DNA of 64,000 bases, from NCBI GenBank assembly GCA_963809325.1, contig CAWEIZ010000008.1, positions 126,165-190,164 of the forward strand, written 5' to 3'. Numbering within the stretch: position 1 is the stretch's first letter; each line of letters starts with the position of its first letter. The notes under the pieces were generated by a model, which ran no database searches, was not told where the DNA came from, and saw only the letters and a program-made list of their open reading frames with translations. This stretch comes from an uncultured Actinomycetes bacterium (GTDB taxonomy: Bacteria; Actinomycetota; Thermoleophilia; Gaiellales; JAICJC01). Both the position numbers and the translations under genes were made by a program. Below, piece by piece: positions 1,523 to 20,556 of this stretch.

Positions 1523-1537
1523 GCCGGCAATCGCTCC

Positions 1538-2863: not shown

Positions 2864-2929
2864 GTCCCGTTGGGCATGCCGGGACCGAGGGTCTCCCGAG
2901 CCGGGATCGAACCTACGTCACCGACAGCC

Positions 2930-2952
2930 CATCCCATCATCCTGATGGGATG
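2930..2952. promoter_or_regulatory. Perfect inverted repeat CATCCCATCA-tcc-TGATGGGATG, candidate operator between divergent genes
   Basis: 10-bp perfect arms with 3-bp spacer in the ClC/CorA intergenic region. Confidence 0.45.
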
Positions 2953-3028
2953 AAGTCCGCGCCCCTGGGACGCACTCCCCGGCGACCGTTCGACCGACGC
3001 TGCTCAAGACGGGTGTAGGCTCGCCGGC

Positions 3029-4009
3029 GTGAATCTGGTCCGGATCGCCGGCGGTGAGACGGTCGAGCACGAGGTCGGCGAGCTGCCGGCGCTCCTGGCG
3101 CGGGGCGACGGAGTGGTGTGGCTCGACCTCTCGGCCGGAGACGCCGAGATGGGTTCGGTCCTGAGCCAGGTGTTCGCGGTCCGGTCGAGCGCCCTCAGGG
3201 AATGCGAGCAGCCGGGACTCGTCCCGCGCGTGCGTCGCTACAGCGATCACCTCTTCGTGGAGCTGCACGCGCCGGCGACCGGATCGGATGGGATGGTCGA
3301 CGCCCTGGCGCTCGTGCTGTTCGTGGGCGGCGGCTACGTCGTCAGCGTCCACGAACGCCGCGAGTCGGTGAAGGACGAGGACGTGACGCGCGACACCGAG
3401 ACCGTGTCGCGGCGCCTGGCCAAGCGCACCATTACGGTCGAGTCCGCCGCGGACCTGGCGTACTCGGTCGCATCGGCCATCGCTCAGCGGATGGAGAGCG
3501 AGGTCGGAGCGCTGTCCAACCGGGTGGTCGCGCTCGAGCGGAGCATCCTGGTCTCGCGGCGGCGCGACGACGAGGTGCTCGAGTCGATGTTCCGGGCTCG
3601 TCACGAGCTGGTCACGGTGCAGACCATGGCGAGCCATGACCGTTCGATCTTCGAGCGCCTCACCCGTGTCGCGGGCGACCTCCTGGACGAGGACGGGCGC
3701 CGCCTCGTCGAGGACATGATCGACCAGTTCGGTCGTGTCCAGGGGATGTGTGCGACCGAGCGCGATTTCCTCCAGGAGCTGCTCGACCTCTATCAGACGA
3801 GGGCCACCGACAGCATCAACGTCGCCATGGAACGGCTCGCCCTGATCACCGCCGTGGCGCTCCCGATCACAGCCGTGGCGTCGCTCTACGGGATGAACAC
3901 GATCGTGAACTCCGGCACGCGGCCCGTCCAGCTGGCGGTGTCGCTGGTCGCAATGGGCCTTCTGACGGTGGTGATGCTCGTCTGGGCGCGGCGGCAGGGG
4001 TGGTGGTAG
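3029..4009 (+). CDS. corA: CorA-family Mg2+/Co2+ transporter
   Basis: YGMN signature and two C-terminal TM helices. Confidence 0.85.
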   Translation: MNLVRIAGGETVEHEVGELPALLARGDGVVWLDLSAGDAEMGSVLSQVFAVRSSALRECEQPGLVPRVRRYSDHLFVELHAPATGSDGMVDALALVLFVGGGYVVSVHERRESVKDEDVTRDTETVSRRLAKRTITVESAADLAYSVASAIAQRMESEVGALSNRVVALERSILVSRRRDDEVLESMFRARHELVTVQTMASHDRSIFERLTRVAGDLLDEDGRRLVEDMIDQFGRVQGMCATERDFLQELLDLYQTRATDSINVAMERLALITAVALPITAVASLYGMNTIVNSGTRPVQLAVSLVAMGLLTVVMLVWARRQGWW

Positions 4010-4027
4010 CGGAGACGTGGGTTGGCG

Positions 4028-4867
4028 CTAGTCCTTCTCGGGGGCGGCGACCTCCGTGAAGAGCGCTCCCTGGGCAGCGCCTGATCCAGCCTTGCCGCCT
4101 CCCGGGCCACGCAGAACGTATGCGGCGACCACGGCCAGGCCGGCTCCGATCAGCGGGCCGACGATATACACCCAGTAGCTGGTGAAGTCGCCGCCGACCA
4201 GGTCGGGCCCGAACGTGCGCGCCGGGTTCATCGAGGCGCCCGAGATCGGGCTCCCCCACAGGCCCGCGAGGATGATGTAGCTGCCGACGCCCAGCGCGCC
4301 GAACACTCCGAGGTTCTGGGCACCCGATGCGGTTCCGAGGATCACGCTGACCAAGCCGAGGGTCAGCACGGCCTCCATCAGGAGCGCGTCCGTGGACGAG
4401 TAGCCCGACGCTGGATAGTTGGAGCCGAACACGGCCGAGGCGTTGACCACGCTCTGCACGAACCACGCGGCGAGCGACGCTCCGATCAGCTGCACGACGA
4501 TGTACCCGGGCACCCGCCTCCACGGGAAGTCCCCCCGCAGGGAGAACGCGACGCTGACCGCGGGGTTGAGATGCGCGCCCGACACCCTGCCCATGAACAG
4601 GATGATCGCCATCACCATCAACCCGGGCGCGGTGACCGCCGCCGTCCTGCTGATCGTGTTCGGGAAGGCCTCCCCCATGACCCCACCGCCACATGCCACC
4701 AGTACCAGAAAGAACGTTCCCAAGAGCTCCGAGAACAGTCGCCGCCACTCCTGCGACGGATCCTGGAAGTCCTGGATCGGCGCCAGCACGTCACGGTCGA
4801 ACAGCGCCTCCATGTGAGACAACGCCGCCACGCGCGTTGCAGCCTCTCCCGCTCGACTCTCAGCCAT
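4028..4867 (-). CDS. MIP/aquaporin family channel
   Basis: Two NPA motifs (SGAHLNPAVS, GASMNPART). Confidence 0.9.
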   Translation of the reverse strand: MAESRAGEAATRVAALSHMEALFDRDVLAPIQDFQDPSQEWRRLFSELLGTFFLVLVACGGGVMGEAFPNTISRTAAVTAPGLMVMAIILFMGRVSGAHLNPAVSVAFSLRGDFPWRRVPGYIVVQLIGASLAAWFVQSVVNASAVFGSNYPASGYSSTDALLMEAVLTLGLVSVILGTASGAQNLGVFGALGVGSYIILAGLWGSPISGASMNPARTFGPDLVGGDFTSYWVYIVGPLIGAGLAVVAAYVLRGPGGGKAGSGAAQGALFTEVAAPEKD

Positions 4868-5023
4868 CGCCCCAACCCTCCTGTCCTCAAACAGTGGCAT
4901 CCGACACCCACCGAGACACGGCGCGCACGACTCTAGGCCTCTCTCCCATACACCGGCATCACCCCAACCGAACGAATTCCATTGTTGGGATACGCGCGCC
5001 TCCGTGCGGACTGGGTCGCTGGG

Positions 5024-5588
5024 TTAACGGTGCCGGCGGTACTGCAGCTCGACGATCCCGTTGCGGGAGGGGGTGCTGGAGATCAGGTCGAGCCGGTAGG
5101 ACTTGGGAACGTCGTCGAACAGCAGGGTGCCCTCGCCCGTAACGTAGGGGAACAGGCTCACGTGGAACTCGTCGATCAGGTCGAGCAGCATGAGCGACCG
5201 CCAGAGGCTGACGCCGCCCCAGACCACGATGTGGCCGTCGCCGCCTCGCCTGAGCTTGTCGATCTCTTCTGCCGTGTCACCAGCGGCGATGGTGGTGTTG
5301 GCCCAGTCGGCCGTCCTCAGGGTCCGGGAGAAGACGACCTTGCGCCCGGCGTTCAGGATGTCGGCGAACGGGTGGTCGGTGGACGTTGTCATGGCCCCGG
5401 CGATGCCCTCGTAGGCGGTGCGGCCCATGATGTGCGCGTACGCGCTCTGGAGAAAGTCGAGTTGCGCCGGGTCGTCGGGCTCACGGTTTTCGGGCAGGTC
5501 GAAGCAGAACTTCCAAAACTCGGTGCCCTCGTCGGCGAGAAGGCCGTTCGAGCGAGTAGTTGAACACCGTCGCTATCAGCTTCCGCAT
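5024..5588 (-). CDS. Dihydrofolate reductase/RibD C-terminal family protein (frameshifted)
   Basis: MRKLIATVFNYSL start in one frame; MGRTAYE..VWGG..LIDEFHVSLFP..GEG in another. Confidence 0.75.
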
Positions 5589-5744
5589 GATCAGACCTCC
5601 GTGGTCTCGGGTCGTCTGGGGACCGTGCTTGCTGGGACGTGCCTGTCGTACTTCAGACGCCACTGCCGCCCAGAAGTCATCGGTGCCCCGGGTGCTCCAC
5701 GAGGCGGTGGGACCAGGCGCGAGCTGAGACGGGGAGTGCCGGGA

Positions 5745-6313
5745 CTACTTGCGTACGCGGAACCGGAGGATGGTGGCGTCGCCCGACCGCGCGCTGCTGA
5801 TCGGTTCCAGGTCCACCCTGGTGAGCCCCGGGGACGAGAAGGGGATGCCATCGCCGAGCAGCACCGGCAGGACATACACGAGGATCTCGTCGACGAGCCC
5901 GCGCCCCAGGCACTGGCCCGCCACATCGGCGCCGAGGATCTCCAGGTTCTTGCCGCCCGCAGCGTCCAGTGCCGTGGCGACCGCTTCCCCGATGTCGCCG
6001 CTGAGGATCGTGACATCCGGCTCCGGCGGCTCCGGCGGCCGATGGGTGAGGAGGAAGAACGGGCCGGCGAACGGGTAGTCCACGCTGCCGGGTCCTCGGC
6101 CTCCATCTTGCTGCCGACGTCCCAGGTTCGCCGGCCGATGAGCATGGCGCCGGTGGCCGCCGCGATCTCCGCGAAATCGTCCGGCGCCACGAAATGGGCG
6201 AGCGGGCGACCACCGCCCCAATCCATCCTATGGCCGGGACCGGCGATGAAGCCGTCGAGCGACATCGCCCTGTTCACGACCACCTTGCCGTGTCCGGTGC
6301 TCGTCTCGCTCAT
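5745..6313 (-). CDS. Dihydrofolate reductase/RibD C-terminal family protein (frameshifted)
   Basis: MSLDGFIAGP..GRRTWD, then GLVDEILVYVLPVLLGDG in a second frame. Confidence 0.8.
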
Positions 6314-6744
6314 CTGCTCCTCCGAAGAACCACGGGCGGCCATTCTTGCATCCCCTGGCCCTGGCGAGTGGCCTCGCAGTCACGGGTGCCTTCGGAATGG
6401 GGTGCGCCGCATGGGTAAGCCTTGACCCCGTCAAATCAGATGGCGGGCAGAGCGCGAGGTCGCCCAGCTCGGCTAGCCGGATCGCGCTCGGCGCCACACG
6501 CGGCGTCGCTCCGGAGGCAGCCCTGCACGGGCGCTGTGGGCGAACGTTTGCGGAACGTCCAAATCTGGTATCAGTTGTTGCTTGACTCGGCAGGCGCGCT
6601 GGCCCAGCAAGGAGCTACCCGGCGGCGGCCACGCCCGGCAGCGGGCGACCTCCTCGTACGTGCTGGCAGCCGGCCGCGCCTGAGAGTCAGGCCGTCCGAG
6701 CGGCATTCTTGCGCCGCCGTCGCGGGCGGTGGGAGGATGGGCGG

Positions 6745-7365
6745 GTGCCGTCGCCGCCCACCATCGCGCCGGTCCTCGTGGCCGAGCTGCTCGTCGAGGG
6801 CGAGCAGTGGCCGGTCTACGTGCACGTCATCGACCATCCCGACGCGCGCGTGCTGGTCGACACTGGCATGACGGAGCTGCACCCGGCGGTGGCCGACCTC
6901 GATCCCCGCCTCCATCCACTGAGCGAGCAGGCCTTCGACCTCGCCGGCATCGACGTCGTCGTCAACACGCACCTGCACTTCGACCACTGCGGCGGCAACC
7001 ACCTCTTCGCCGGCAGGCCGATCTACGTCCAGCGCCGGGAGCTCGACGACGCGCGCAGCGAGGACGACTACACGATCCGCGAGTGGGTCGAGGCGCCCGG
7101 CGTGCGGTACGTGCCGGTCGACGGCGAGCACGAGCTGCTTCCCGGGCTCCGGCTCGTCCCGGCGCCGGGCCACACGCGCGGCATGCAGGTGGTCGTCGTC
7201 GAGACGGGCGGGCGTCCGGTCGTCGTCGGCGGCGATGTGGCGGTGAGTTTCGGGGAGCTCGACGAGCCGCGCACCGAAGGGCAGCTGCGGGTGCGCGCGC
7301 TCGACCCCGAGCTGGTCTGGCTCGCGCACGAGCATGAGCCGTGGCGGCCCAGCACCACCCCGTGA
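6745..7365 (+). CDS. Metallo-beta-lactamase fold hydrolase (AHL-lactonase-like)
   Basis: THLHFDHCGG (HxHxDH), PGHT and GD motifs. Confidence 0.85.
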   Translation: MPSPPTIAPVLVAELLVEGEQWPVYVHVIDHPDARVLVDTGMTELHPAVADLDPRLHPLSEQAFDLAGIDVVVNTHLHFDHCGGNHLFAGRPIYVQRRELDDARSEDDYTIREWVEAPGVRYVPVDGEHELLPGLRLVPAPGHTRGMQVVVVETGGRPVVVGGDVAVSFGELDEPRTEGQLRVRALDPELVWLAHEHEPWRPSTTP

Positions 7366-7423
7366 ACGACCCTTAAGGCCAGCACCTCGCCCTGGTCAAC
7401 GCGTGATCGGGCGAGCGGCCAGG

Positions 7424-9003
7424 CTAGCGTCCGATGGCGTAGAGGGTGGCGTTGTTGATGGCGTAGACGGTGCCGTCGGGGCCGATGAGGGTGGGGGTGT
7501 AGGCCTCTGGGCGCGGGCTGTTGAGGTGGATCTTCTCGGCCAGGGTGTTGCGGGCCAGGTCCCAGCGGTAGAGGGTTCCGTCCTCGCTGTTGACGATCAC
7601 CGAGTCGTCGACGAGGTCGACCACGGCCGAGTTGATGCACCACTCATACCGTGCTCCAGCTGGGTCGCCGGGGATGTGCACGGGCGACAGGATGGTCTGG
7701 ACAGCCTTCATGACCCGGGTGTCGGCGTAGGGGTCTTTCTGGCTTGCCCGAGGGTCGAGCACGGCGACCCGGTTGTGCCCGTCTCCGTGTGGCCCGATGC
7801 CGAGGTAGTTGTTGTACTTCGACACCAGCAGGTACGGCGAGGTTCCGTGGTAGCGGGGCACGGCGCGGGCAGGCAGCACGGAGACGGTGTTGTCCCACCC
7901 GAAGGATCCCGGTGTCTTGGCCCGGGTCAAGGTGGCGTTGTAGTGCAGCAGCCAGCCGCGGTCATCGTGGTTGGGGAACGGATTCTCCAGGACGCCGTAG
8001 TACACGTCCCCGTCCGGTCCGACCGTCGGTGAGGCGGACGAGCTGGTCGAGATGAAGGCCGGCTGGCCGCTGACCGGGTCTCTCAGCACGACGTGGAACC
8101 TGGGTTTGAGCGTGGCGGCGTCGAGCCCGACCAGGATGCCGCGTGTGGGGCTGGTGACGGTGATGTAGACGGTCGTGCCGGAGGGCGAGAGGGCCGGGGC
8201 GCAGTTCAGGGCCACGCCATTGATGGTCGAGTTGCCGGCGGCCGCGGCGGCGGTGATCCACGTCGCGTGGCCATGCGCATCGATCCGGGCGATCCCGCTG
8301 GACAGGTGCGCCGGTGTTGCGCCGGTCACGGTGAACCCGAAATACACCGACCCGTCAGATCCCGCGGTCAGCGGTGTGGTGATCTGCACGGCCTTGTCGT
8401 AGGCGGACCGGTGGGCCCGCCACTGCGAAACACCGTAGAACACCCTCCGCCGCACCGCACCGGCGGTCAGTGTTGGCGTGCCGGCGCATGAGGACTGTCC
8501 CCCCTGCACCTGCAACTGCCAGGGCTGTGCTGGGCGTCAGCACGGCGGGCAACGGAGGCGTCCAGGTGCCGAAGCCACCCGTGAATGCAGGCGGCCGGTA
8601 GTCAGTCTTGATTGACCAGCGCCGGGCGCCGCTGGTCCCGGAGTACGCGACCACCCGGAATCCGGCCTTGCTCACTGACCCGGGTCGGGACCAGCACCGT
8701 GTTGGCCGCCGTGATCATCGGGGAGCCGTAGTGAATGGGCAGAACGCCACCCAACAGAACCGGAGCCAGATCGACCTTCGCCCTCCAGCGGATCCGGCGG
8801 AACGGCTGAGACCGCTCTCGGGCCACTGCTGTGTGCTGCGCGTTCCCGGCGAAACCTGCCCACTCGACTGCTCCGCCGGGGCCATGGTTAGCGAACACGA
8901 TGCGCCCGTTCTCCCCGGAAGACGCCGCCCGGACAGCAGTCGCGCCGCCCGCCCAAACCGCCAGAATCAGCGCGATTCCTCCTAGAAGCGTTGTCCGCCG
9001 CAT
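7424..9003 (-). CDS. Secreted beta-propeller-like hypothetical protein, split over three frames
   Basis: Signal peptide in ORF 8602-9003 continues via 8355-8675 into 7424-8515; PTVGPDG repeats. Confidence 0.55.
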
Positions 9004-9053
9004 CCCTCACCCCTGCCGTGGTCCATAGAGCTTCCCAGCTTGTTCCAAACATG

Positions 9054-9686
9054 TCAATGAGATTCGGTCGTCCTCGATTCACCGATCGGCCGGCGGTAGC
9101 AGACGTGCGTCGCCAGTGGCGAATGGAGGACCTCGTCGGGCTCGAAATCGAACTCGGCGACGCCGTCGAATATCCTCTCGCCGGACCCGAGTAGAACGGG
9201 GACGATGTCGAGCCAGAGCTCGTCGATGACGCCCGCCAGCAGCGCTTGGCGGACGGTCGAGGCGCCGCCCGCGATGTCGATGCCGTCTGCGCCGGCAGCC
9301 TCGCGGGCCTGGGCGTAGGCGGCGTCGAAGCCATCGGTGACGAAGTGAAACGTCGTCCCGCCCTCCATCTCGATCGGCGCGTGAGTGTGATGGGTGAGGA
9401 CGAACACGGGCGCGTGGTAGGGCGGCTCGGGCCCCCACCAGCCCGACCACTCCTCGTCCCACTCGCCGCGGATCGGGCCAAACATGTTGCGGCCCATGAC
9501 GTAGGCGCCGCGGGGGCGCAGCAAACGGCGCTCGGCAGTGGCGTCCGCCTCGTTCGCGCGCTCGTCGCCAAGGTGCCAGCCGTGAAGCTCGCGGCCCCGC
9601 TTGCCGAGCGGGTCTTCGCGGCTTTGATCCGGCCCGGCGACGAAGCCGTCGAGGGAGATCGACATGTGGCAGGTGGTGTCGGCCAT
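9054..9686 (-). CDS. Dihydrofolate reductase/RibD C-terminal family protein
   Basis: MSISLDGFVAGP, MGRNMF, IAGGA, IVPVLLGSG motifs. Confidence 0.85.
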   Translation of the reverse strand: MADTTCHMSISLDGFVAGPDQSREDPLGKRGRELHGWHLGDERANEADATAERRLLRPRGAYVMGRNMFGPIRGEWDEEWSGWWGPEPPYHAPVFVLTHHTHAPIEMEGGTTFHFVTDGFDAAYAQAREAAGADGIDIAGGASTVRQALLAGVIDELWLDIVPVLLGSGERIFDGVAEFDFEPDEVLHSPLATHVCYRRPIGESRTTESH

Positions 9687-9934
9687 CACTCTCCTTTCCA
9701 TCGTGCTGGAGGAAGGCATCATCGGCCGCCGTCGGCGGCGACGTAGCGGTTCGCTTCGGCGAGCTCGAGGAGCCTCGCACCGAAGGCCTCCATGGCCGAG
9801 GAGCAGGTCAGCCCTTCGTAGACGGCCGGTCGCTCGACCTTCGAACACCGCGCCCGCGCAGCCATCGACCGCCCATCGCCAGGGAGCGAGGATGCTACGT
9901 TGCCTGGACTAGGCACGATGGCCTCGGAGGACCT

Positions 9935-10552
9935 ATGCGGCGAGGGCGTCCGCTCTTCTGGACGATTATCGGAAGCGTCGTGGCTGCAGTGGCGGTAGCA
10001 ATAGCTTTGACCCAAGTCAACTCGGGTACGCCGCCAGAAGCAGCCTCTTCGCCCGTGCCTCCCATTTCGGCCGGTGCAAGCTCTCATGCTGGCGAGTCCG
10101 CCCCAGTGGTAACTCCGGAGACTTCCAGCACATCGTCGTTCTCATATCTCTCGGACATGCACCCTTCCGGGGATCTCGCCGGGAAGGTAACACCGGGTCC
10201 GGTCAAGATATCCGGATCGATTTACCCCAAGAGCATCTCGTTCTATTGTAACGTTGGTGACGCAACTGCGTTTCCTGTATACAAGCTCGAGCATAACGCT
10301 CGCCGGTTCCAAGCCACCATTGGACTAGGTGCTGAGTCGCCCCCCGGATTTCAAGCGGGCGTACTACTAGTTGGCGATGGGCGCACTCTCCGGATGTTTA
10401 GTGTCAGCGTCCCTAAACCAAAGACCGTCGATGTCAATGTAACAGGGGTCCATACCCTCCAACTCGAATGCTTCGGCTCCGGCAATTCGACAACCGGTGG
10501 TGAGGCCGTGGCTCTCGCGTGGGGCAACGCACGTGTCTCAGGAGGACATTGA
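9935..10552 (+). CDS. Membrane-anchored NPCBM/NEW2-like carbohydrate-binding protein
   Basis: N-terminal TM, Ser/Pro linker, YLSD..FQATIGL..VDVNVTGV..WGNAR pattern; visibly lower GC than flanks. Confidence 0.6.
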   Translation: MRRGRPLFWTIIGSVVAAVAVAIALTQVNSGTPPEAASSPVPPISAGASSHAGESAPVVTPETSSTSSFSYLSDMHPSGDLAGKVTPGPVKISGSIYPKSISFYCNVGDATAFPVYKLEHNARRFQATIGLGAESPPGFQAGVLLVGDGRTLRMFSVSVPKPKTVDVNVTGVHTLQLECFGSGNSTTGGEAVALAWGNARVSGGH

Positions 10553-10723
10553 CCGCGGAATGGCGGGTCGTGCTCGCCGGTCTTCGACCGGGCGGTCGGC
10601 CCCGGCGGTGAGCGCCATTCCCGTGGGCCGCCGAGGCGCATCCAAGAGGGGTCGGCTTCGAATCGTCCGGTCGGTCTCAACCTCGCCAGTCCGGGAGCAC
10701 GCTGACGCGCCGCAACTCCTCTT

Positions 10724-11455
10724 TCAGACCCTCCATTCTTCGTATGGGATCTGTTCGGCGGTTCGACGTACGTCGGCCGTGAGATAACGATCGGGAACTT
10801 GGCCGCGGTAGTCCATCTCGAGCGCCTCGTCGGGCGATTCGGCGTTGACCTTCAGGCCGAGCGTCTCATGCGTCCCGTTGGGGTTGGCGCGGTGGAAGGT
10901 GACTCGGAAGGTTCGCATCTCCGGCGGCGGCTCGGCGTCGTCGTTCATGATCGTGGGTTCGGGGGGATCGGACTCAGCTCTGCCTCGTTCTCGTCTCTGG
11001 ACTATCCGCACCGATGGCCCCGGGCCGGACAGCATGCGGATGACCTCGTTGCGGATCTTGTCGTAGACGACGTCGAGGTCGAGCAGGATGCGCGCGGCGG
11101 CGCCCTCGTTCTCACGCAGGATGCCGAGCAGGATGTGCTCGGGGCCTACGTCGCGGTGGCCAAGCGACAGCGCCTCCCGCTGTGCCAGCTGCAGCACCCT
11201 CTTGGCACGTGGGGTGAACGGAGCCTGGTCCGTGGTCACCTCGTCCTTTTGGCCGACGATTCGCGTCACCCGCGCGCGCACCTCGTCGACCGTGATGTCG
11301 AGCGAGTCGAGCACGCGAGCGGCCAGCCCCTCCTCCTCGCGCAACAATCCCAAGAGGATGTGCTCGGTGCCGATGTAACCGTGCTTGAGCGTGCGCGCCT
11401 CGACTTGGGCGAAGACGATGACGCGCTGGCCGCGTTCTGTCAATCGCCCGAACAC
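10724..11455 (-). CDS. Stand-alone Clp protease N-terminal (ClpC N-domain) protein
   Basis: Two Clp_N repeats (HGYIGTEHILLGLL; HRDVGPEHILLGIL), no AAA+ module. Confidence 0.85.
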   Translation of the reverse strand: MFGRLTERGQRVIVFAQVEARTLKHGYIGTEHILLGLLREEEGLAARVLDSLDITVDEVRARVTRIVGQKDEVTTDQAPFTPRAKRVLQLAQREALSLGHRDVGPEHILLGILRENEGAAARILLDLDVVYDKIRNEVIRMLSGPGPSVRIVQRRERGRAESDPPEPTIMNDDAEPPPEMRTFRVTFHRANPNGTHETLGLKVNAESPDEALEMDYRGQVPDRYLTADVRRTAEQIPYEEWRV

Positions 11456-11566
11456 GGCGTGCAGTGTCGCACGAAGGGGACCCCCGTCGCACCGACCGAT
11501 CGTCGTCGAAAGGCGGTGACGAGTCGTCAGCGGTGCGTACCGATGAAGGAGCCTCGCAGGTCTCAC

Positions 11567-11594
11567 GTCCGGGTTCCTGCAATCCCTGTAACCC
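11567..11594 (-). repeat. Right TIR (family A) of an upstream element whose left end is not seen in the window
   Basis: GTCCGGGTTCCTGCAATCCCTGTAACCC; 27/28 identical to 15395-15422 and inverted (26/28) relative to 11609-11636. Confidence 0.8.
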
Positions 11595-11608
11595 CCGCCA
11601 TTCTTGAC
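11595..11608 (+). repeat. 14-bp inter-element spacer CCGCCATTCTTGAC (variant target-site copy)
   Basis: Same length and same 3' CTTGAC as the duplicated TGCCCTGCCTTGAC (8/14 identical); sits exactly between two abutting TIRs. Confidence 0.65.
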
Positions 11609-11638
11609 GGGTTATAGGGATTGCAGGAACTCGGACAG

Positions 11639-12040
11639 TCAGGCTGCTGGCGCGTCGAAGAGCCGGCCAGCTTCGATGGTCGCCACGACGTCGGTGAGCT
11701 CTCCTGGAATCAGATCCGGCCGCGCGGCGAGATGGCTGATCAGGCTGCTCATGAAGACGCCGGCGTCTCCTAGACCGGAGGCTCGCACGTACTCTTCGAT
11801 CAGTCGACGCCCGGGAAGCAGAGTCCGCCATCCCTCCGATCCAGGTCGGAGCGCTTCTAGCAGCGCTGCCTGGCAGTTCTCGACGAGCTGATCTACGGCG
11901 CCAGCGTCTGTGCGTCGGTTCAGTTCAACGGCGACCTCCCGAGCCTTCTCAGTTGCCGCAGTCCTCAGAACCTCGACCTGTTCCGGGTTCCAGTTGCCGT
12001 CCGAATCCAGCACTGCCTGCCCAGCCAGTAGGCGGGCGAG
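11639..12040 (-). pseudogene. 3' fragment of an unidentified protein ending just inside the left TIR
   Basis: Protein-like C-terminal ~130 aa of ORF 11639-12697; upstream part is antisense to the methyltransferase fragment. Confidence 0.4.
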
Positions 12041-12046
12041 CGGCCC

Positions 12047-12310
12047 GACGGCGACTTCCGCAGTTCCGAGGTGACGGCGTTGCGCGACGAAGCCGATTTC
12101 GTCATCACAAATCCGCCGTTCAGCCTCTTCCGGCAGTTCATGACCTGGGTGGTCGGGGGCGGCAGGAAGTTCTCGGTGATCGGCCACGGCAACGCCATCA
12201 CCTACAACGAGGTCTTTCCCCACATCATGGATAACGAGCTGTGGAAGGGCGCCACCGCCAACACCACCGACATGGTGTTCGGTGTCCCGGAGGGTGCGAA
12301 GGTAAGCGAC
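12047..12310 (+). pseudogene. Internal fragment of EcoRI-family adenine DNA methyltransferase
   Basis: DGDFRSSEV..ADFVITNPPFSLFRQF..IGHGNAITY matches the M.EcoRI-family motif IV region; no N- or C-terminus. Confidence 0.75.
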
Positions 12311-12536
12311 GCCGCTACCAGCAGGAGTGGGCCGCACGAGACGCTGCGTAACCCGGACGGAAGCCCATTGCTTCGTGCCGCAGCCATCACCCGCGGCTGG
12401 CTCGACACGCATCGGATCTCGGCGGCCGCGCTTCGGCGCCGCGGGCTCATCCGAACCAACGGTCATGGCCCGACGTGGTCGGTACGGCTCACCCAAGCCG
12501 GGCAGGTAGCTCCGTTGGGCGTCCGACTGAGGGGAC

Positions 12537-13820
12537 TCACGCGGCCTCCGGCGCCGATGCAAGACGTGACGGTGCTTCGTGGAGCGGGTCGGGAATGCGG
12601 TCGCCGAGTCGAAGCAGGACGGCTCCGGCCAGCACCGCGGCAAGCGCGCCACCCCACCAGATGGCGTCTGGTGAGGTCTGTAGGAGAAGGCCACCAATCG
12701 CTGGGCCGAGGGCCAGGGAAATGGTGAAGGTCAGACTGTAGAGAGACAGGTAGCGGCCGAGCAGATGGGCTGGAGCCATGTCCGCGACCAGCGGCCCGAG
12801 GACGAGAATGTGTGCGATTTCGCCGAGTGCGAAGACGATCGCAACGCCGACGAGGAGACTGGTCGCAGCGAGCTCCGAGTGGATGAGCGTCGCTGGCAGC
12901 ACCGCGAGCAGGCTGACCGCAAAGAGCGCGCTTGTCAGCGCGAAAGCGTGTGTGCGTCGCATCCGTGCCACTACGCGCACCGCCGGGATCTGCGCGATGA
13001 CGATGAAGGACGTGTTGACGAGAACGATGATCCCGATCTCGGCGGGGCCGACCGGTGTGTGGGCCTTTGCAAAGGGCGGCAGGATGTTGGAGAACAACGT
13101 GTGGCCGACGACGACGAGCACGATGTTGGCTGCGATCACCGTGAGGAAGAGCCGATCTCGAGCGACGGCGCGAAAGCCGGTTCCGTTGGCGTCTGTCGCT
13201 GCGACGGTCACGGCTCGCGGGCTCGGTACTGCAGCGAGCACGATCAGCGCGAATCCGGCGTAGGTGACAGCGTCGAAGAAATAGAGAATCTGGAACGAGC
13301 TGAGCCGCTGTGCAGCTGCGACGACGAAGCCGGCTACGGTCGCGCCGACGCCAATACCGAAGTTGCCGGCGACGCGGTTAAGGGCGAAGGCGGCCGCTCG
13401 CTGCTCAGGCGTGACCAACCTGACGACCAGTGTCCGGTTGGCCGTCCCTGCCGCCCCGAGCCCGGCTCCGCTGACAATCGAGCAGGCAAACGCCTGCCAG
13501 GGACGCTCGACGAAGGCGAAGCCGGCGTAGCCAAGGGCGCTCGCCAAGCTTCCTGCGACCACGATCGCTTTGGCGGAGTACCGGTCGAGCAGCGCTCCCG
13601 TCGGCGGGGTGACGATTGCGGACGTCCCCATGGTCGCCGCGAGAACCAGTCCGGCTGTCGACGTCGGGAAGCCACGTATCTGGTGCAGATAGATGATCTC
13701 AAAGGGAAGAACGAGCCCGTAACCGAAGTAGTTGAGGGCGTTTCCCGCTTGAAGGATGAGCACGGGGCGAGAGAGCCCGGTGCGCCAACCCGCGATGAGG
13801 TGTGAGACGCGGCGGTTCAT
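12537..13820 (-). CDS. MFS transporter
   Basis: Multi-TM hydrophobic ORF; GALLDRYS motif A; start uncertain (ORF extends to 14099). Confidence 0.85.
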   Translation of the reverse strand: MNRRVSHLIAGWRTGLSRPVLILQAGNALNYFGYGLVLPFEIIYLHQIRGFPTSTAGLVLAATMGTSAIVTPPTGALLDRYSAKAIVVAGSLASALGYAGFAFVERPWQAFACSIVSGAGLGAAGTANRTLVVRLVTPEQRAAAFALNRVAGNFGIGVGATVAGFVVAAAQRLSSFQILYFFDAVTYAGFALIVLAAVPSPRAVTVAATDANGTGFRAVARDRLFLTVIAANIVLVVVGHTLFSNILPPFAKAHTPVGPAEIGIIVLVNTSFIVIAQIPAVRVVARMRRTHAFALTSALFAVSLLAVLPATLIHSELAATSLLVGVAIVFALGEIAHILVLGPLVADMAPAHLLGRYLSLYSLTFTISLALGPAIGGLLLQTSPDAIWWGGALAAVLAGAVLLRLGDRIPDPLHEAPSRLASAPEAA

Positions 13821-14287
13821 CCGTCCTGGAGAACGGATGCCTCCCGCGTGAGGAATCTCGGTTGGTGTCATGCCGTCGGCCTGAGGCACGCGGCGTCCAC
13901 GTAGCCGAGTCGACGCGGATCGCAGTATCGCTATTGGAGTGGCCGCCACGTGTGGCTCGTGCGCGACGCGACGGGCGAGGCGGATCGTGTGCCTCCGGGC
14001 GGCCGCGCGATGTAGGTCCTCGATGTGAGCGGTGGCGAGCGCTCGAGCGAGAGCGGGATGCAGCATTTGAGCCTCCTTTCCTCTACGACGACGCTTCACC
14101 TCAGTGCCGACCAGGTCGCCGCCCGATCGATCGTTTGGGGTGGTCGGCTTGTGCGCATTGGTCGTCCAATCAGAACGCGAATTTGCCTGTCGCGGGTTCT
14201 GACCCCGCCTGGTGGAGAAACTCGCCGACGAATTTCGAGCATCGGTGGTGTCACAATCGTTGTGAGCCGCGATGCCAGACTTCGCTC

Positions 14288-15293
14288 GTGAACGACAGCG
14301 CTCTGATCCGTGCCCGTGCGGGCGACCATCAGGCGTTCGCGGCGCTCACGGACCCCTACCGGCGCGAGCTGCAGCTGCACTGCTACCGGATCCTCGGCCA
14401 GGTGCAGGACGCCGAGGACGCGGTGCAGGAGACACTCCTCTCCGCGTGGAGAGCATTGGAGTCGTTCGAGGAGCGCTCGACGCTGCGCTCCTGGCTGTAT
14501 CGGATCGCCACCAACCGCTGTCTGAACATGCTGCGCGACAGCGGTAGACGCCCCGCGACGGCGGCCGGGCTGGCATCCACCCCCCCGGAGCCCACCCGCT
14601 ACGGCGAGGTGCTGTGGCTCGAGCCCTATCCCGACGCGCTGCTCGAAGGCATCGTCGACGGCGCGGCCGGTCCGGAGGCCCGCTACGAGACCCGCGAGGC
14701 GGTAACGCTCGCGTTCCTCACCGCGCTTCATCGCCTCCCGCCCCGCCAGCGCGCCGTGCTCGTGCTTCGCGACGTGCTGGGGTTCTCCGCCACTGAGGTC
14801 GCCGCGATGCTCGATACCACCCCGACGTCGGTGAACAGCGCGCTCATCCGCGCCCGCGCGACGATCGAGGAGCGCGGGCCGCGGGCGCACGACCGAGCGC
14901 CGCTCCCCCGATCAGCCCAAGAACACGAGCTCGTCGCGCGGTTCGCGGACGCATTCGAGCGCGGAGATGTGGAACCGATCGTCGCGCTGCTGGCCGAGGA
15001 CGCGTGGCTGGACGATGCCCCCGGAGCCTCACGAGTACCAAGGCCACGACGCGATCAAGCAGTTCATCGCCCATGCGTTCGCGAGACGGGACAACCCCCA
15101 CCGCCTCATTCCGACGCGGGCCAACTCCCAACCCGCGTTCGGCCAGTACGTCAAAGACCCACACACCGACGTCGGCCGCGCGCTCGGGCTGCTCGTGCTG
15201 ACACTCGACGGCGACCGCATCTCGCACATCACCCGCTTCGCCGCGACCAGCGCCCTACCGCACTTCGGACTCCCCCGAACGATTCCGTGGTAG
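14288..15293 (+). CDS. ECF sigma-70 factor with C-terminal SnoaL-like domain (SigG-like), frameshifted near 15010
   Basis: DAEDAVQETLL, WLYRIATNRCL, LPPRQRAVLVLRDVLG; C-terminus TRANSQPAFGQY in a second frame. Confidence 0.85.
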
Positions 15294-15422
15294 CCACTCG
15301 CTCAGCGCGAGAACTCTCAGCGTTACCGTGCTGACCCGGAACCAAGACTCGCGACCCTGCGGGGTCGCGTCCCCTCCTCGACACGAGCAACCATGTCCGG
15401 GTTCCTGCAATCCCTATAACCC

Positions 15423-15436
15423 TGCCCTGCCTTGAC
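15423..15436 (+). repeat. Target-site duplication, left copy TGCCCTGCCTTGAC
   Basis: Identical to 19612-19625; lies between the family-A right TIR and the family-B left TIR. Confidence 0.9.
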
Positions 15437-15548
15437 GGGAGAGTAGATAGAGAGGGTGAAACGCCGCACAAGCGGTAAGGCGGCTCGGGTATTCTGGGTC
15501 CGGGCAATTGAAGGGAGTCGTGATGGGCGTCGAGGAGGCGCTCGGCGG

Positions 15549-16484
15549 CTCAACGCACTCCTCAACTACCTGTATGCGCTACTCGAAGCCGAGAGCCGCA
15601 TCGCCCTGGCGATAGTCGGCCTCGACCCTGGCATCGGCATCCTCCACACCGACCAGCGCGCCCGCGACTCCCTCGCCCTCGACCTCATGGAGACCGCCCG
15701 GCCCGCCGTCGACCGATACGTCCTCGACCTGCTCGCCGCCCGTCCGCTACGTGGCAGCGACTTCGCCGAGACGTCGAAGGGCCAGTGTCGGATCATGCCG
15801 ACCCTCGCCCGCCAACTCGCGACTACGACGCCGGCGTGGGCGGGCGAGGTCGCGCCGCATGCGGAGCTCGTCGCCAAGCTGCTCGCCGCCGACGCTGGAC
15901 TCGCCACACCACCGACAATCCTCACCGGCAACACCCGGCGGGTGGCCCGACCCAGCGGCAGTCGAATCCGGCCGGACCAAGTGCCCAGGCCGACGGTGCC
16001 GGCGCAAGCGTGCCGCGATTGCGGAGCGGATGTCCCCGCCGGGCGGCGCCGCTGCGCGAACTGCCACGCCACCGCGAATGCTGCGAGGCTCCGCGCACAC
16101 CAGGCCCTTGGAATTCTCGCGCGCCAGGCGACCGGGAACCATCCATCCACACGAGCCGACGTCCGGGCAAGCATCGCCGCCGCCCAACGCGTGCAGTGGC
16201 AAGCTCGCCACCAGGACACCGGTACCGGCTACACCGGCCACCCGTCGGAGTTCCGGCGCCTCATCCTCCCACGCCTCGCCGGCGCCCGGCCCGGAGACCT
16301 CGCCCGCGCTACGGGGCTCTCACGCGGCTATTGCGCCCAGATCCGCGACGGCCGGCGTGTGCCACATGTTCGCCATTGGGCGGCGTTCCAGCTCGCAGGC
16401 CTCAACGGTCGCCGCGCTGAGCCGTTTCAGCGGACCCACATCTGGTCGATCATGGGGGAGTTCCCCGGCGCCGACGCGGTTTGA
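15549..16484 (+). pseudogene. cas1: N-terminally truncated solo Cas1 (casposase-like) with C-terminal CxxC..CxxC Zn finger and HTH
   Basis: LNALLNYLYALLE..GLDPGIGILHTD..RDSLALDLME..RP is the Cas1 catalytic-domain signature; CRDC..CANC; LARATGLSRGYCAQIRDG HTH; ORF 15456-16484. Confidence 0.85.
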
Positions 16485-19400
16485 AAGTTGCCGACGCGTT
16501 TGGATGTGAACCCGAGGGTGCTGCCGGTGCCGATCGGGATGACCAGCGCGTCGTCTGTGAGGTGGTGGTCGACGGCCGCCCAGGCGCGCATGCCCTGGTA
16601 CTGACTTTCGCTTTGCTTTGCGTAGGCGTCGGTCAGATCGCTCGGGGTGATGAGCCCGCGCCGAAGCCCGAGGATGAAGTCCGAGGCACCGACATAGTCA
16701 ACGACCCAGGAGTAGAGGTCGATGTCTTGCGCCTCTTTTGGATACCCCTGTTCATCCACCGGCGTGAGCCGCGCGCGGAACCCAAGGTTGTTCAAAAGTT
16801 CGACGACGTAACGGGCGGTGTTCGTCCCCCTGACGTAGGACAGGACCGAGACCGGCTTGCCGTAGCTCGGCGAGCGGTGTACGAGCTTCTGGGCATGTGC
16901 AGGGTCGAGCTTGTATGGGCAGTAAGGCCGATGCCCGGGGAAGTTGAGTGGGATCAGCTGGCACGTCGGTGGCGCTGGCACGCTGCTGCTGCCGTTGTTC
17001 AGGATACTGTGGAGCCTGTCGCGGTCGATGGCGTATGCGATCGCGTGTCGCGCCGTGCGATCGCGATTCAACCGCGAGTTCGGTTCAATAACGAGCACGT
17101 CGGTGGCGGGGTAGGCGGATGGGTGAGTCTGGGCTGCGTAGTTGGTCTCGATCTCATGGATCTGCTGCGTGGTTGGCTCAATCGCGAAGTAGAGCCAGTC
17201 GGCGGTACCGTGCTCGACCGCGGAAACAGCCTGGCTGGTTTTCTTGTAGACCCGGAAGACGATGCGATCGGGGTATCCGTCGGGTTGCGCGTCCGGTGAC
17301 CATTCGTGGAAGTACGGGTTGCGTACGAGGACGTACTGCCAGATGTCGTAGCGGATGATCATGTACGGGCCGGTGGCAGGCAACGGGTGGCGACCGGAGT
17401 CGTGTCGAGGGGCCTCGGGGGGCATCGCGGCCGCGAGTGGCATGGCGAGTTTCGCGAGGAAGTCGGGATCGGGATGTCGCAGATGAAACGTGATCCTCCC
17501 GGTATTGTCGTCCACCACGATCCCACGACTGAGGTCGCACGACCCCGGGGACGCCAGGCATTTCGGCGCGCCGACGACCGCGCCGAAGACGGACTGCGAG
17601 TCCACGGGTTGCGAAGGATCGAGGTAACGGGCATTGACCGTGAACGTGCGCTCAAGGCCATAGCGGATGTCGCCGGCGCGCACCGGCCTTCCGGTCGAGT
17701 ATCGGATCCCCTCACGCAGCTGGAATGCGTACGTGCGGCCGCCGTCGGTGACCGTCGGAAGCGCCTTTGCCAGATCCGCGACCACCGTCCCGCCGTCCGG
17801 ACCGGGTACTCGTTTCAGGCTGACGAGGCCGTCGTTCGTCACCGCAAGCGAATCCCACACCACGGGGAACCACGCGTCAAAGCTGTCGGGGTCGACCGAT
17901 GGACGCTCACGCAGCCCGTCCTCGCTGGCGCCCGCGATGGTCAATGTCCCGCCGCGGTGCTCCGTCCGGGATGTCGTGGTGGTGATCGCCGCGCCGTCGT
18001 CGACCGTTGCCACGTCCTGCGGAGGGGCGCCGACCGCCAGGCTCGACCTGATCTGTCCCGTCTTGGCATCGAGGCGGACGACCTTCGCGGAGCCGCGGGC
18101 CGCCACCCAGACCGCGTCGCCGACCACCGCCACGCCCTGCGGATCGTCGCCTCCAGTCGGGAACGTGGCCACCACGAGTGTGTCCGGGTCGATCCGCGAG
18201 ACCGACCCGTCCAGGCTGTTGGTGACCCAGACCGCGTCTCCGATGGCGATGCCGTTGGGTCCGTGGCCGACCGCGATCGGCGTACCCGTCGTGTCGGTCG
18301 CCGGATCGATCGGCGTCACCGTCCCGACCGACTCGTTCGTGACCCACACTTTGCCAAAGCCGACCGCGACTCGCGTGGGGTTTGTCCCGACCGAGAAACG
18401 TATCGACGACCTCGACCCGTGTCCGGGTCGATCTTCGCAACCGCGCCGTCAACGCTCAGCGCCACCCACACCGCCCCCCGGCCGACCGCGATTCCGGTCG
18501 GGCCGTTGCCCACATAGATCGGTTCGCCGACAACCCGCTGGACAGTCGGGTTCACCTCCGACACCGTGCCATCGCCCGCGTTCGCGACCCACACGCTGCC
18601 CGCGCCCACCGCGACCGCATCCGGCCCGTCGCCGACCTGGACAGCCTGCTGCTGGCCGGTGGCCGTGTCAACGGCCAGGACGGTGTCTTGCGAGTAGCGC
18701 GGTAGCCACGCAACCTTCCCGTCGACCGCCACCCCGAACGGCGCCTCATCCAGCTCAAGAGGCGCGCTCGCATGCCCACTCGCCTCGACCAAGCTGAACG
18801 AGTTGCTCGCCAACCCAACCGACGACGCCTCGCCCCCTCTCACAAAGATGACACCGATCGCAGCCGCCGCGGCCACCGCCAACGCCACGGCCGCGACCAT
18901 CCACGCCGTCGACCGTCGCCGCTTCGGCGCCGGCACGACTGGAACGGCGGGGAGCGGCGTCTCCGAGATGACCTCGACCAGCCGCACCGGCGCCTCGATC
19001 CCCTTGAACCGGCGCGTTCGCGCGGCCGAGAACTGGACTCCGTCGACGCGTTGCGAGAGATGGACAACGGTCTCGCTGGCCAGAACCTGGCCCGGCGCCG
19101 CGACCGAACACAGTCTCGCGGCCAGGTTCAGCGCACCGCCCCGATAACCACCCTCGGTCGGCACCGCCTCACCCGCATCCAACCCGACCCCGACGCCCAC
19201 CGGGAACACATATCCGTTCTCCTCTGACGGCGTGCGCAGGCGCCGCTGCAGCTCCACCGCCGCCCGCAATGCCTGCCGCGCCGACCCGAACACGCACAGC
19301 GCCTCGTCGCCGCGCAGCTCCAACAGTTCGCCCCCATACGCCGGAACCGTGCCCCGGACGAACCCGGCAAACGACGCCGCCAGATCCGACGCCGCCTCGT

Positions 19401-19506
19401 CGCCCTGCTCCTTCGTAAACCGCGTGTAGCCACGCACATCCGCGATCAGGAATGTCCGCAACTCCGTCGGCGAGATCGGAACCGGCCCGTCCGTATCGTC
19501 TGCCAC
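16427..19506 (-). CDS. Adenylate/guanylate cyclase + TM + YVTN beta-propeller + family-5 solute-binding fusion, frameshifted near 18400
   Basis: FLIADVRGYT, LRGDEAL, GALNLAARL; repeated VWVAN..GTVS..; ATGPY..RNPYF SBP_5 motifs. Confidence 0.8.
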
Positions 19507-19611
19507 GATCCACCGAGTCTACATCCGAGGCCGTGCTTAGAGCAGCTCGGGGCATCATTCGGGGCGCCGTGTCCGTTTCGACGGCGTTTCGACCTCTCTA
19601 TCTAGTCTCCC

Positions 19612-19625
19612 TGCCCTGCCTTGAC
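19612..19625 (+). repeat. Target-site duplication, right copy TGCCCTGCCTTGAC (overlaps putative lexA -35)
   Basis: Identical to 15423-15436. Confidence 0.9.
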
Positions 19626-19649
19626 TCCGTCCGACCCCTCTGCAACACT
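19621..19649 (+). promoter_or_regulatory. Putative lexA promoter: TTGACT-N17-AACACT with TG extension
   Basis: Canonical spacing just upstream of SOS box, AGGAGG RBS (19674) and GTG start. Confidence 0.6.
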
Positions 19650-19654
19650 TCGGA

Positions 19655-19670
19655 TCGAACACACGTTCGA
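19655..19670. promoter_or_regulatory. SOS (LexA) box TCGAACACACGTTCGA
   Basis: Perfect match to actinobacterial TCGAAC-N4-GTTCGA directly upstream of lexA. Confidence 0.9.
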
Positions 19671-19686
19671 CCCAGGAGGGCGACCG

Positions 19687-20317
19687 GTGGATCTGACCTC
19701 GAGACAGCAGGAGATTTTGGCGTACGTGAACACGCACGTCGACGAGCACGGCTACCCGCCGACGGTGCGCGAGATCGGCCAGGCGGTGGGGCTCACGTCG
19801 CCGTCGACCGTGCACGCCCACCTCGAGAAGCTCGAGAAGGCGGGCCTCATCCGGCGCGACGCAACCAAGCCGCGCGCGCTCGAGGTGATCGAGGGCGGGC
19901 GCTCCCGGCGCGGCTGCGGTGGTCGAGCTTGCGCCCCCGCGCCAGTCGACGATGCTCCCGCTCGTCGGCGAGGTTGCCGCCGGCTCCCCGGTGGTCGCCG
20001 AGGACCGGGTCGAGGACTACCTCGCCGTGCCCGACCAGCTCGCCCCCGACGCCGACTTCGTACTCACGGTCAAGGGCGACTCCATGGTGAACGCCGGCAT
20101 CCTCGACGGCGACCTCGTGGTCGTCAGAAAGCAGGACGACGCCCGAAACGGCGAGATCGTCGTCGCGCTCGTCGGTGACGAGGACGCGACCGTGAAGCGG
20201 TTCTTCCGCGAGGGCGGCCGCGTCCGGCTCCAGCCCGAGAACGACGCCCTCGAGCCGATGTTCCCGGACCAGGTTCAGATCCTCGGCACCGTGAAGGCGG
20301 TGCTGCGACGGCTGTGA
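19687..20317 (+). CDS. lexA: LexA repressor (frameshift near 19915)
   Basis: [19 protein letters not shown]; VAAGSP cleavage site; GDSM and TVKR catalytic motifs. Confidence 0.95.
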
Positions 20318-20556
20318 CGCCCGTGATCGACCCGCATCGTCCTTCCTCCGAGCCGACGCTCGAGGACGTGGTGCTCCGTGCCCTCGCCGAGGCGCGCGTC
20401 CGCCGGCCCGAGCGCCGGCCGACGTGCCCCGTGTGCGCCGCCCAGATGTGGGCGGTCGAGCGAAACGGCGGTCGGCTCGAGCTCCATTGCGGCCAGTGCG
20501 GCTCGGTGCTCGCCGACGACTCCGCTGCGGAGTCGTCGCTGCGGCTCGTCGCCTGA
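20314..20556 (+). CDS. Small zinc-ribbon protein translationally coupled to lexA
   Basis: GTGA overlap; CPVC..CGQC. Confidence 0.6.
   Translation: MTPVIDPHRPSSEPTLEDVVLRALAEARVRRPERRPTCPVCAAQMWAVERNGGRLELHCGQCGSVLADDSAAESSLRLVA

Follow-up and report, generated by a model that had tools for sequence, protein, structure and literature searches.

A palindromic junction in a probable tandem array of Cas1-mobilised, casposon-like elements upstream of lexA in an uncultured Gaiellales genome

We analysed a stretch of 64,000 nucleotides, hereafter the window, from the metagenome-assembled genome of an uncultured actinobacterium (Gaiellales, JAICJC01; assembly GCA_963809325.1, contig CAWEIZ010000008.1, positions 126,165 to 190,164), in which an array of mobile-element units lies directly upstream of lexA. 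From left to right, this array consists of a stump A', represented by a right-end terminal inverted repeat (TIR), a 14-nt spacer s1, an element A, a 14-nt sequence t0, an element B with a 5'-truncated Cas1 gene, a second copy of t0 and finally lexA. Stump and element A meet in a 70-bp palindrome at 11567–11636, whose left arm (RE-A', 11567–11594, no strand assigned, GTCCGGGTTCCTGCAATCCCTGTAACCC) is a solo right-end TIR of family A with 1 mismatch to the core of the right end of element A, and whose right arm (11609–11636, GGGTTATAGGGATTGCAGGAACTCGGAC) is of the left-end type; by direct reading, 26 of the 28 arm positions are complementary. The spacer s1 between them (11595–11608, + strand, CCGCCATTCTTGAC) is a target-type 14-mer of a non-local allele, carrying the CTTGAC end found in most of the 21 lexA-proximal alleles compared, and agrees with t0 (TGCCCTGCCTTGAC) at 8 of 14 positions, six of which form this 3' CTTGAC. 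An earlier reading made from the letters of the stretch without database searches (the sequence-only reading) had described the place as a head-to-tail junction of two family-A ends with a single target-sized spacer of 14 bp, and this description, including both counts, was reproduced. We read the palindrome as the seam of two family-A units in a tandem, Cas1-mobilised and casposon-like array, with s1 most likely imported ready-made, an interpretation that we regard as probable rather than secure.

The 22-nt core of TIR-A is present in three copies in the window at up to 3 mismatches, compared to none in 100 shuffles, and the whole 4.22-Mb genome likewise holds three copies only, one forward and two reverse. 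Since each arm of the seam is a copy of the boundary TIR of element A found 3.8 kb away, the arms can be identified as ends of mobile elements. The three copies are 1–2 positions apart, while s1 and t0 are 6 of 14 positions apart, which agrees with the previous argument that decay is an unlikely cause of the spacer mismatch.

Element A (11609–15422, no strand assigned) is bounded by 29-nt TIRs at 11609–11637 and 15394–15422 that are 97% complementary. It is non-autonomous, an integrase being absent, and its cargo comprises a 352-aa open reading frame (ORF) without assigned function, an MFS transporter and an ECF-type sigma factor (Pfam), the last of these with a weak SnoaL-like match below the Pfam cut-off. 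The part from 12508 to 15422 is 94–96% identical in four related genomes (G023, G042, G043 and G044). Directly 3' of its right end follows the first t0 copy (15423–15436, + strand), and then element B (15437–19611, no strand assigned) with 39-nt TIRs at 15437–15475 and 19573–19611 that are 82% complementary. Element B is flanked by a perfect 14/14 duplication of t0; the flanks of element A agree at 8/14 only, so that A lacks a matching target duplication.

The lexA-proximal t0 copy (19612–19625, + strand), with TTGAC at 19621–19625, is separated by 29 nt from the palindrome TCGAACACACGTTCGA and by 61 nt from the GTG start codon of lexA, both of which are downstream of it. The intervening conserved leader (19626–19686, + strand), which begins with TCCGTCCGACC, forms the invariant right flank of every array and contains this LexA-box-like palindrome at 19655–19670, which we take to be an actinobacterial LexA box. 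Judging by its position and conservation, the TTGAC that closes the 14-mer presumably serves as the −35 element of lexA. The gene itself occupies 19687–20317 on the + strand (Pfam LexA_DNA_bind, E 9.6e-26). As an observation in its own right, a 1-nt insertion near 19912 (19900–19920) places the DNA-binding and peptidase domains in different frames. The gene is intact in G023 and G009, the extra base is missing from contigs of the metagenome runs X3 and X5, and run X1 is without the deletion at 19912 where depth exists; the split frame may be genuine, as a pseudogene or strain variant, or reflect an error of assembly.

The first ORF of element B (15456–16484, + strand) is a 5'-truncated remnant of a Cas1-type integrase, or casposase, which matches positions 182–277 of the 283 of PF01867 (E 1.4e-24). 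About 225 N-terminal residues are gone, including the region of a near-invariant Glu168; retained are a His/Asp/Glu block, a four-Cys ribbon and a C-terminal helix-turn-helix (HTH)-like block. This remnant is the sole Cas1 match in the genome, and with this only gene truncated nothing in the array of the window is self-mobile today, rendering the array a fossil. Full-length homologues from relatives within the genus comprise 510–525 aa and match the Cas1 profile over nearly its whole length (E 1e-39) as well as TIGR00287 (E 5e-32), with the casposase of Methanosarcina mazei (6opm, E 2.5e-17) as the best solved relative. In an alignment of 21 sequences (A1), His251, Asp263 and Glu266, the four Cys residues and the C-terminal HTH-like block are invariant, and Glu168 is near-invariant. 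For Cas1 of E. coli, the excerpted text of PMC4046053 gives E141, H208, D218 and D221 as active-site residues, and Glu168, His251, Asp263 and Glu266, with matching spacing, may be their equivalents in the family studied here.

Among relatives beyond the genus, casposase genes are carried by a 16-kb A-type element (G013, frameshifted) and an 18.6-kb B-type element (G004, intact, 525 aa). The family as a whole is large, with at least 2416 proteins at E ≤ 0.001 among the candidates scored and at least 518 confirmed loci in species-representative genomes, which by their record titles belong to Acidobacteriota, Actinomycetes, Acidimicrobiia, Chloroflexota and others. LexA was found at a distance of up to 10 kb from the Cas1 gene in 1 of 80 loci, and this locus belongs to the window's own genus. 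We therefore consider lexA a target only within the actinobacterial family of the window and dismiss it as a target in other phyla. An example of the wider family is a 10.9-kb element from Terriglobales (locus L102, 3986–14888) with a Cas1 of the same family and 37-nt TIRs whose start, GGGATAGGGGAT, recalls TIR-A. It is flanked by a perfect duplication of 14 bp, GTCAAACGGAGTTG, which on the opposite strand terminates in TTTGAC, and directly after it comes a second element end.

For comparison with related arrays, lexA DNA was located in 40 of the 41 genomes searched, stretches of 20 kb upstream of lexA were examined and TIR types A to F were distinguished; the unpublished genome G015 was among those searched, and no claim is based on it. 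An element end abuts 14-mer and leader in all 15 relatives of the genus with readable sequence upstream of lexA, three more lexA loci of the genus ending at a contig edge. Among the matches listed, element-like ends 14 nt from the leader recur in at least 6 of the 7 genera of the family sampled, and no such end was found at 12 lexA loci from four other families of the order. Arrays contain up to four repeat copies (four in G019, three each in G014 and G020, two in G012, G013 and G005), the junctions having been picked out by the pattern ...CC[C/T] or TT[C/T], followed by N9 plus TTGA[C/A] and then by GGG, AAAGG or the leader. A tally of 18 units in 13 loci gives 13 with identical 14-mers on both sides; the other five score 13, 12, 11, 9 and 8 of 14, the most discordant being element A of the window. 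Within a genome, one 14-mer is common to different TIR types, which identifies it as host target sequence that was duplicated, as opposed to a part of the element; this also rules out, as a general rule, that elements carry their 14-mers with them. Among the 21 proximal alleles, the 3' (C/T)TTGAC alone is conserved, as had been anticipated by the sequence-only reading for the −35-like end of the target, and the remainder of the 14-mer differs between genomes. This holds even for G023, whose lexA DNA is 97% identical and which has the same A element at 96%, yet carries a different 14-mer. Mixed-end units, for instance with an A-type left end and a C-type right end, are common and are read as fusions by internal deletion.

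Three of these arrays bear directly on how a non-local 14-mer might come to lie between two elements. In G005 (L049, reverse strand, array at 9200–19917 in lexA orientation), a C-type and a B-type element are enclosed by perfect local 14-mers, and the internal 14-mer between them is inverted and non-local. Insertion in place cannot invert a target copy, and the pair must consequently have entered as one unit. The internal copy of G043 is inverted as well, with 1 mismatch to the local allele. In G004, the internal allele CGGCGCTCCTTGAC equals the proximal allele of G022, and 5 of 14 positions distinguish the outermost, hence oldest, repeat from the proximal one; this array probably continues across a contig break (end of contig C9; L068/L093). 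Two large elements carry, among other cargo, genes for a UvrD helicase together with an OLD-type ATPase-nuclease, for the R subunit of a type I restriction system, for transporters and for metabolism. The intact casposase, the OLD and UvrD pair and the restriction subunit all reside in the 18.6-kb B-type element of G004, and we take the nuclease–helicase pair to be Gabija-like.

Taken together, the system is casposon-like in its workings: it combines a Cas1 integrase with TIRs, duplicates 14 bp, uses one conserved target and stacks its units in tandem. The integrase is present at full length in the element family (within the A-type element of G013 and the B-type element of G004) and as a remnant only in the window, TIRs bound both A and B, and duplication in the expected range of about 14–15 bp is found for B and for the majority of units in the comparison. 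Casposons are, however, defined in the excerpted text of Krupovic et al. 2014 (PMC4046053) as self-synthesising elements with a family-B DNA polymerase. The corresponding profile PF00136 was detected in none of five genomes of the genus and none of five genomes from other phyla that contain the Cas1 family, with the control positive in 5 of 14 known genomes. The 38 ORFs submitted, out of 56 of at least 150 aa from two large elements, include no family-B polymerase either. PF03175 was likewise found in 0/5 genomes, but its control was positive nowhere, which renders the result uninformative for protein-primed family-B polymerases. Casposon-like working in combination with the lack of a detected polymerase leads us to classify the system as a variant of casposons and not as a member of families 1–4. 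Nor is it a CRISPR array, since short spacers, Cas2, effectors and repeat transcripts were not found, the inserts measure 0.1–18 kb and the genome has a single truncated Cas1. In the open literature searched (subscription journals being outside the scope), neither Cas1 elements at lexA nor polymerase-less bacterial casposons are described, and none of the papers found mentions a target at the edge of the lexA promoter, arrays of many units with several TIR types or the turnover of alleles.

We propose a model in which, by homology, the casposase (Cas1 with zinc ribbon and HTH, about 520 aa) would join the two 3' ends of an element to target strands 14 bp apart, at a site directly upstream of the conserved leader, i.e. 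exactly 5' of TCCGTCCG. Gap repair would then duplicate the 14-mer and restore TTGAC beside the leader, leaving promoter and target both intact, and the restored target could receive the next element, leading to head-to-tail stacking with only 14-bp copies between the elements. At the seam, the left partner A' is by now reduced to its right TIR, perhaps together with a gene for a Clp_N-domain protein, and the right partner A is a complete, non-autonomous unit. The ORF in question (10724–11455, − strand; Pfam Clp_N, E 7.9e-33) lies between the last module common to relatives and the solo right TIR and is possibly the remaining cargo of the stump. The spacer s1 would represent an intact target copy of an allele other than the current one of lexA, brought in from another site or lineage. 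It may have arrived as part of a composite A'–s1–A that inserted at t0 and lost its left end afterwards, or element A may have arrived alone with one copy of its old target, as reported for a casposon of Methanosarcina mazei. Element B would have inserted later into the lexA-proximal t0, duplicating it. Import by these two routes together appears to us the probable course, and the inverted internal 14-mer of G005 and the allele shared by G004 and G022 make it credible.

Several observations weigh against this model. A simple consensus promoter scan called no sigma-70 promoter at the TTGAC upstream of lexA. No donor of s1 was found: none of the lexA promoters in the searched genomes and metagenome contigs carries the spacer. 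The best match to s1 among the proximal alleles, 12/14 in G042, is unremarkable, given that agreement at 7 or more of the 9 variable positions is reached by 14 of the 190 allele pairs. Neither a left end of A' nor a third copy of t0 exists in the genome, so that the composite route requires an additional deletion. Alleles differ even between close relatives such as G023, indicating fast turnover and leaving room for a history in situ. The motif CCATTCTT, which is part of s1, occurs in seven copies in the genome, three of them on the + strand of the window array (6340, 10733 and 11598), and CCGCCATTCTTG borders a RibD_C-type cassette in G012, G009 and G004 exactly where homology between the genomes stops; such s1-like repeats may be old residents of the array or a shared functional motif. 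All contig evidence from the metagenome runs stems from short assembled contigs, and that of X2 and X5 described below is weak.

The searches for s1 covered several scales. Exact copies were absent from the 30 other genomes of the genus, 400 other genomes of the order yielded three chance matches, all coding, and among the matches listed for 65 genomes of the family none has s1 at lexA (9 further matches exist). The combination of s1 and leader gave two matches in JGI metagenome contigs, both coding (peptides like TAILDAVR), and at 1 mismatch two matches were found within the genome itself, again both coding. A donor lineage could not be assigned by allele likeness, since the 12/14 of G042 is not significant and the allele of G044 is alignable only with a gap. 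Within the array, GGCATTCTTG is found at 6704, and s1-like stretches lie at 6336–6349, 6700–6713 and 10728–10741. The window array is poorer in G+C than the genome, and we estimate the enrichment of CCATTCTT to be weakened about threefold. As to t0, in a contig of run X2 a different A-type end passes straight into t0 and lexA, with a single differing letter over 168 nt; t0 thus seems to be the allele native to the species. On a contig of run X5, element A stands reversed beside lexA, and the first eight positions of its 14-mer are different.

The fast turnover of alleles also underlies the alternative we take most seriously, in which the lineage itself had s1 beside lexA at the time A' and A came in and the array once read [s1]A'[s1]A[s1]lexA; t0 would have replaced the copy next to lexA at a later time, and the insertion of B would have duplicated it. 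Such a switch could have come about through the incoming element's own target copy, through an excision resolving to another allele or through recombination with the array of a relative. In favour of this history in situ, close relatives with the same A element have unlike alleles, the oldest and the proximal repeat of G004 have diverged, and s1-like strings are found in the older distal array and beside the cassette of G009, G012, G023 and G004; in addition, the target-site duplication (TSD) of a casposon itself was transferred in M. mazei according to the excerpts of PMC10359463. The distal s1-like strings are, however, without recognisable TIRs, one of them lies within a coding frame, and a degenerate left end near 10730 was rejected as the partner of A', as its alignment to s1 plus the left end of A scored 17–20 against up to 25 for shuffled sequence. 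The X2 contig, which has t0 beside another A-type end in the absence of B, also speaks against a history in situ, although precise loss of B would look alike. We hold this course to be possible, though on the unlikely side. Improbable in our view is a further explanation, by which a relative's fragment with A'–s1–A replaced part of the resident array through crossovers, so that the seam was not transposed at all. Elements, cassettes and the lexA leader are 80–97% identical across the genus and would offer homology on both sides, and the segment 10625–12507, which includes the seam, occurs in this genome only, with a widely shared module on either side; yet no donor of this segment exists among the 30 other genomes of the genus, and the breakpoints at about 10625 and 12508 are without evident homology tracts.

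The palindrome could also be thought of as a functional hairpin (terminator, operator or cruciform) or as an artefact of metagenome assembly. As single-stranded DNA, the 86 nt around the seam are indeed predicted to fold at −30 kcal/mol, compared to a shuffle mean of −10.3 (z −8.3), with none of 200 shuffles equalling this value. However, the arms are the TIR of element A, many genomes have this TIR type next to a 14-mer at lexA, and the spacing is exactly 14 as at every other junction. Scans for promoters, terminators and Rfam families returned nothing at the seam and nothing at lexA, and no Rfam family was found in the window from 9800 to 20400. In four metagenome runs from soil or peat, the bins left and right of the seam are covered by Logan contigs; run X1 is possibly the source sample, and this coverage is not independent proof of the assembly. 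None of the contigs displayed bridges the seam, parts without coverage being no evidence. A hairpin or an artefact in place of a mobile-element seam is thus scarcely credible to us. The sequence-only reading, finally, had assumed an intact two-A unit of more than 11.5 kb, with its left TIR upstream of the window after TGCCCTGCCTTGAC and all upstream genes as cargo. A composite with a foreign internal 14-mer does have its precedent in G005, and the right end of A is followed by t0 as such a unit would require; yet the genome has no further TIR-A at up to 3 mismatches and, at up to 1 mismatch, no further t0 except for one match in a coding context on another contig, and we judge this version very improbable. 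Its notion of a composite assembled at a foreign target and moved by the outer TIRs finds support in G005 and fails here for want of an outer left end and of t0 beside it, a historical composite with a left end that was later lost being possible.

In agreement with the sequence-only reading, no left TIR-A is present in 1–11566 of the window; the whole genome, at 98.45% completeness, contains none either. What it had expected further upstream, a left TIR-A preceded by TGCCCTGCCTTGAC, is absent from window and genome alike, and s1, which it had expected at lexA promoters of other organisms, was found at none of those searched. It had itself named a missing left TIR, or a 14-mer that never occurs at lexA, as grounds for rejection, and in its specifics it fails on both. 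Additional t0 candidates, at 1910 and 8385 of the window with up to 3 mismatches and on contig C7 with 1 mismatch, lie in coding-like contexts without TIRs. Synteny with G009 stops at contig position ~125,755, about 410 nt before the window, where neither a TIR nor a repeat is found, and the variable region extends from there through 19611 of the window. Within it, the segments 1–1522, 5733–6324, 7423–8872 and 9876–10624 recur in G045, G023, G012, G009, G022, G043 and others in varying orders and orientations. The upstream 11.5 kb are consequently separate, shuffled cassettes and not the cargo of one unit, contrary to what had been proposed. The segment 10625–12507 with the seam has no counterpart in the 30 other genomes of the genus, apart from clpC-like paralogues at ~80% identity. 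A tRNA as original left neighbour was considered and dismissed, since the window, 60 kb of the contig and the loci of five relatives are all free of tRNA genes.

Among known systems, the closest likeness is to family-3 casposons. In the excerpts of PMC4046053, the family-3 casposon AceAut-C1 has the same architecture of Cas1 with C-terminal zinc-binding and HTH parts as the full-length homologues described here, and these elements share TIRs, a duplication of about 14 bp and site-specific insertion beside a conserved gene without damage to it. In contrast to the family-3 casposons of these excerpts, no family-B polymerase was found here, and the target is the upstream edge of a promoter (TTGAC, lexA) and not the 3' end of a tRNA or aEF-2 gene. 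The present arrays furthermore are many-unit, combine several TIR types and include defence genes in their cargo (OLD and UvrD, type I restriction subunit). Tandem archaeal casposons separated by the TSD alone are reported for Methanosarcina mazei in the excerpts of PMC9939771, and for MetMaz-C1 the excerpted text of PMC10359463 states that excision leaves one TSD, proposes a circular intermediate and reports that the element's own TSD replaced the target at the new site. Replacement of this kind would explain both the mismatched flanks and the fast allele turnover of the lexA arrays. The M. mazei elements described there are archaeal, carry the polymerase and use tRNA-related targets, and for MetMaz-C1 mobility was observed in vivo.

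A further likeness exists to the growth of CRISPR arrays by Cas1–Cas2, where a Cas1-type integrase, a leader on one side, duplication of the leader-adjacent repeat at each insertion and an ordered array are found as well. The lexA arrays differ by their 14-bp repeat and by kb-sized inserts with TIRs of their own, with no Cas2, effector genes or transcript processing seen, so that we speak of likeness and not of membership. Like Tn7 at attTn7 in the excerpts of PMC4046053 and PMC9939771, the elements reuse one conserved site beside an essential or conserved gene, at which tandem copies accumulate and decay. The transposase and targeting proteins of Tn7 are unrelated to the casposase. Tn7 duplicates 5 bp of its target. 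Composite transposons, at last, resemble the pair of G005, which together with its internal junction behaves as one unit with the local duplication outside; the window differs from them in that the required outer left end and a local duplication on both outer flanks are missing.

Casposons are considered ancestral to the CRISPR adaptation module, and the known ones are few, mostly archaeal and polymerase-bearing. Here, a Cas1 integrase without detectable polymerase is associated with large cassettes that line up in order beside a leader, at a single promoter and in many genomes of one actinobacterial family. We tentatively suggest, as a rather doubtful extension of the model, that a widespread, undescribed polymerase-less branch of casposons (at least 518 loci, many soil phyla) targets promoter-edge TTGAC, that in one actinobacterial family the lexA promoter serves as a CRISPR-like ledger of leader, 14-bp repeat and kb-sized cassettes with defence systems among them, and that elements carry and swap their old target as a junction of right end, 14-mer and left end. 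If this were true, the 14-mers of an array would record former sites or hosts, and the seam at 11567–11636 would have the form of a transposition-intermediate junction. The arrays offer a natural system for repeat duplication, leader dependence, composite mobilisation and possible target carry-over, in which the mismatched s1 is the kind of trace able to show whether elements take their target along. They double as islands of gene cassettes and defence functions beside the SOS regulator lexA.

Three minor features of the distal array should be noted. At 6413–6445 of the window lies a relic of an E-type end, comparable to the end beside the repeat in G013 and G021, followed by an inverted 14-mer whose reverse complement ends in TTTGAC; it is a further foreign, inverted junction in the distal array. 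At 10557–10621, the right edge of a widely shared NPCBM-domain cassette shows a perfect inverted repeat of 9–10 nt, GGAATGGCG ... CGCCATTCC, with 46 nt between its halves, and has the half CGCCATTC in common with s1. The leftmost part of the window (1–1522), together with the contig upstream to ~125,756, holds a glycine-rich ORF of ~80% G+C with GGxGG-type repeats and a signal-peptide-like start, which recurs in G045 at 89% identity.

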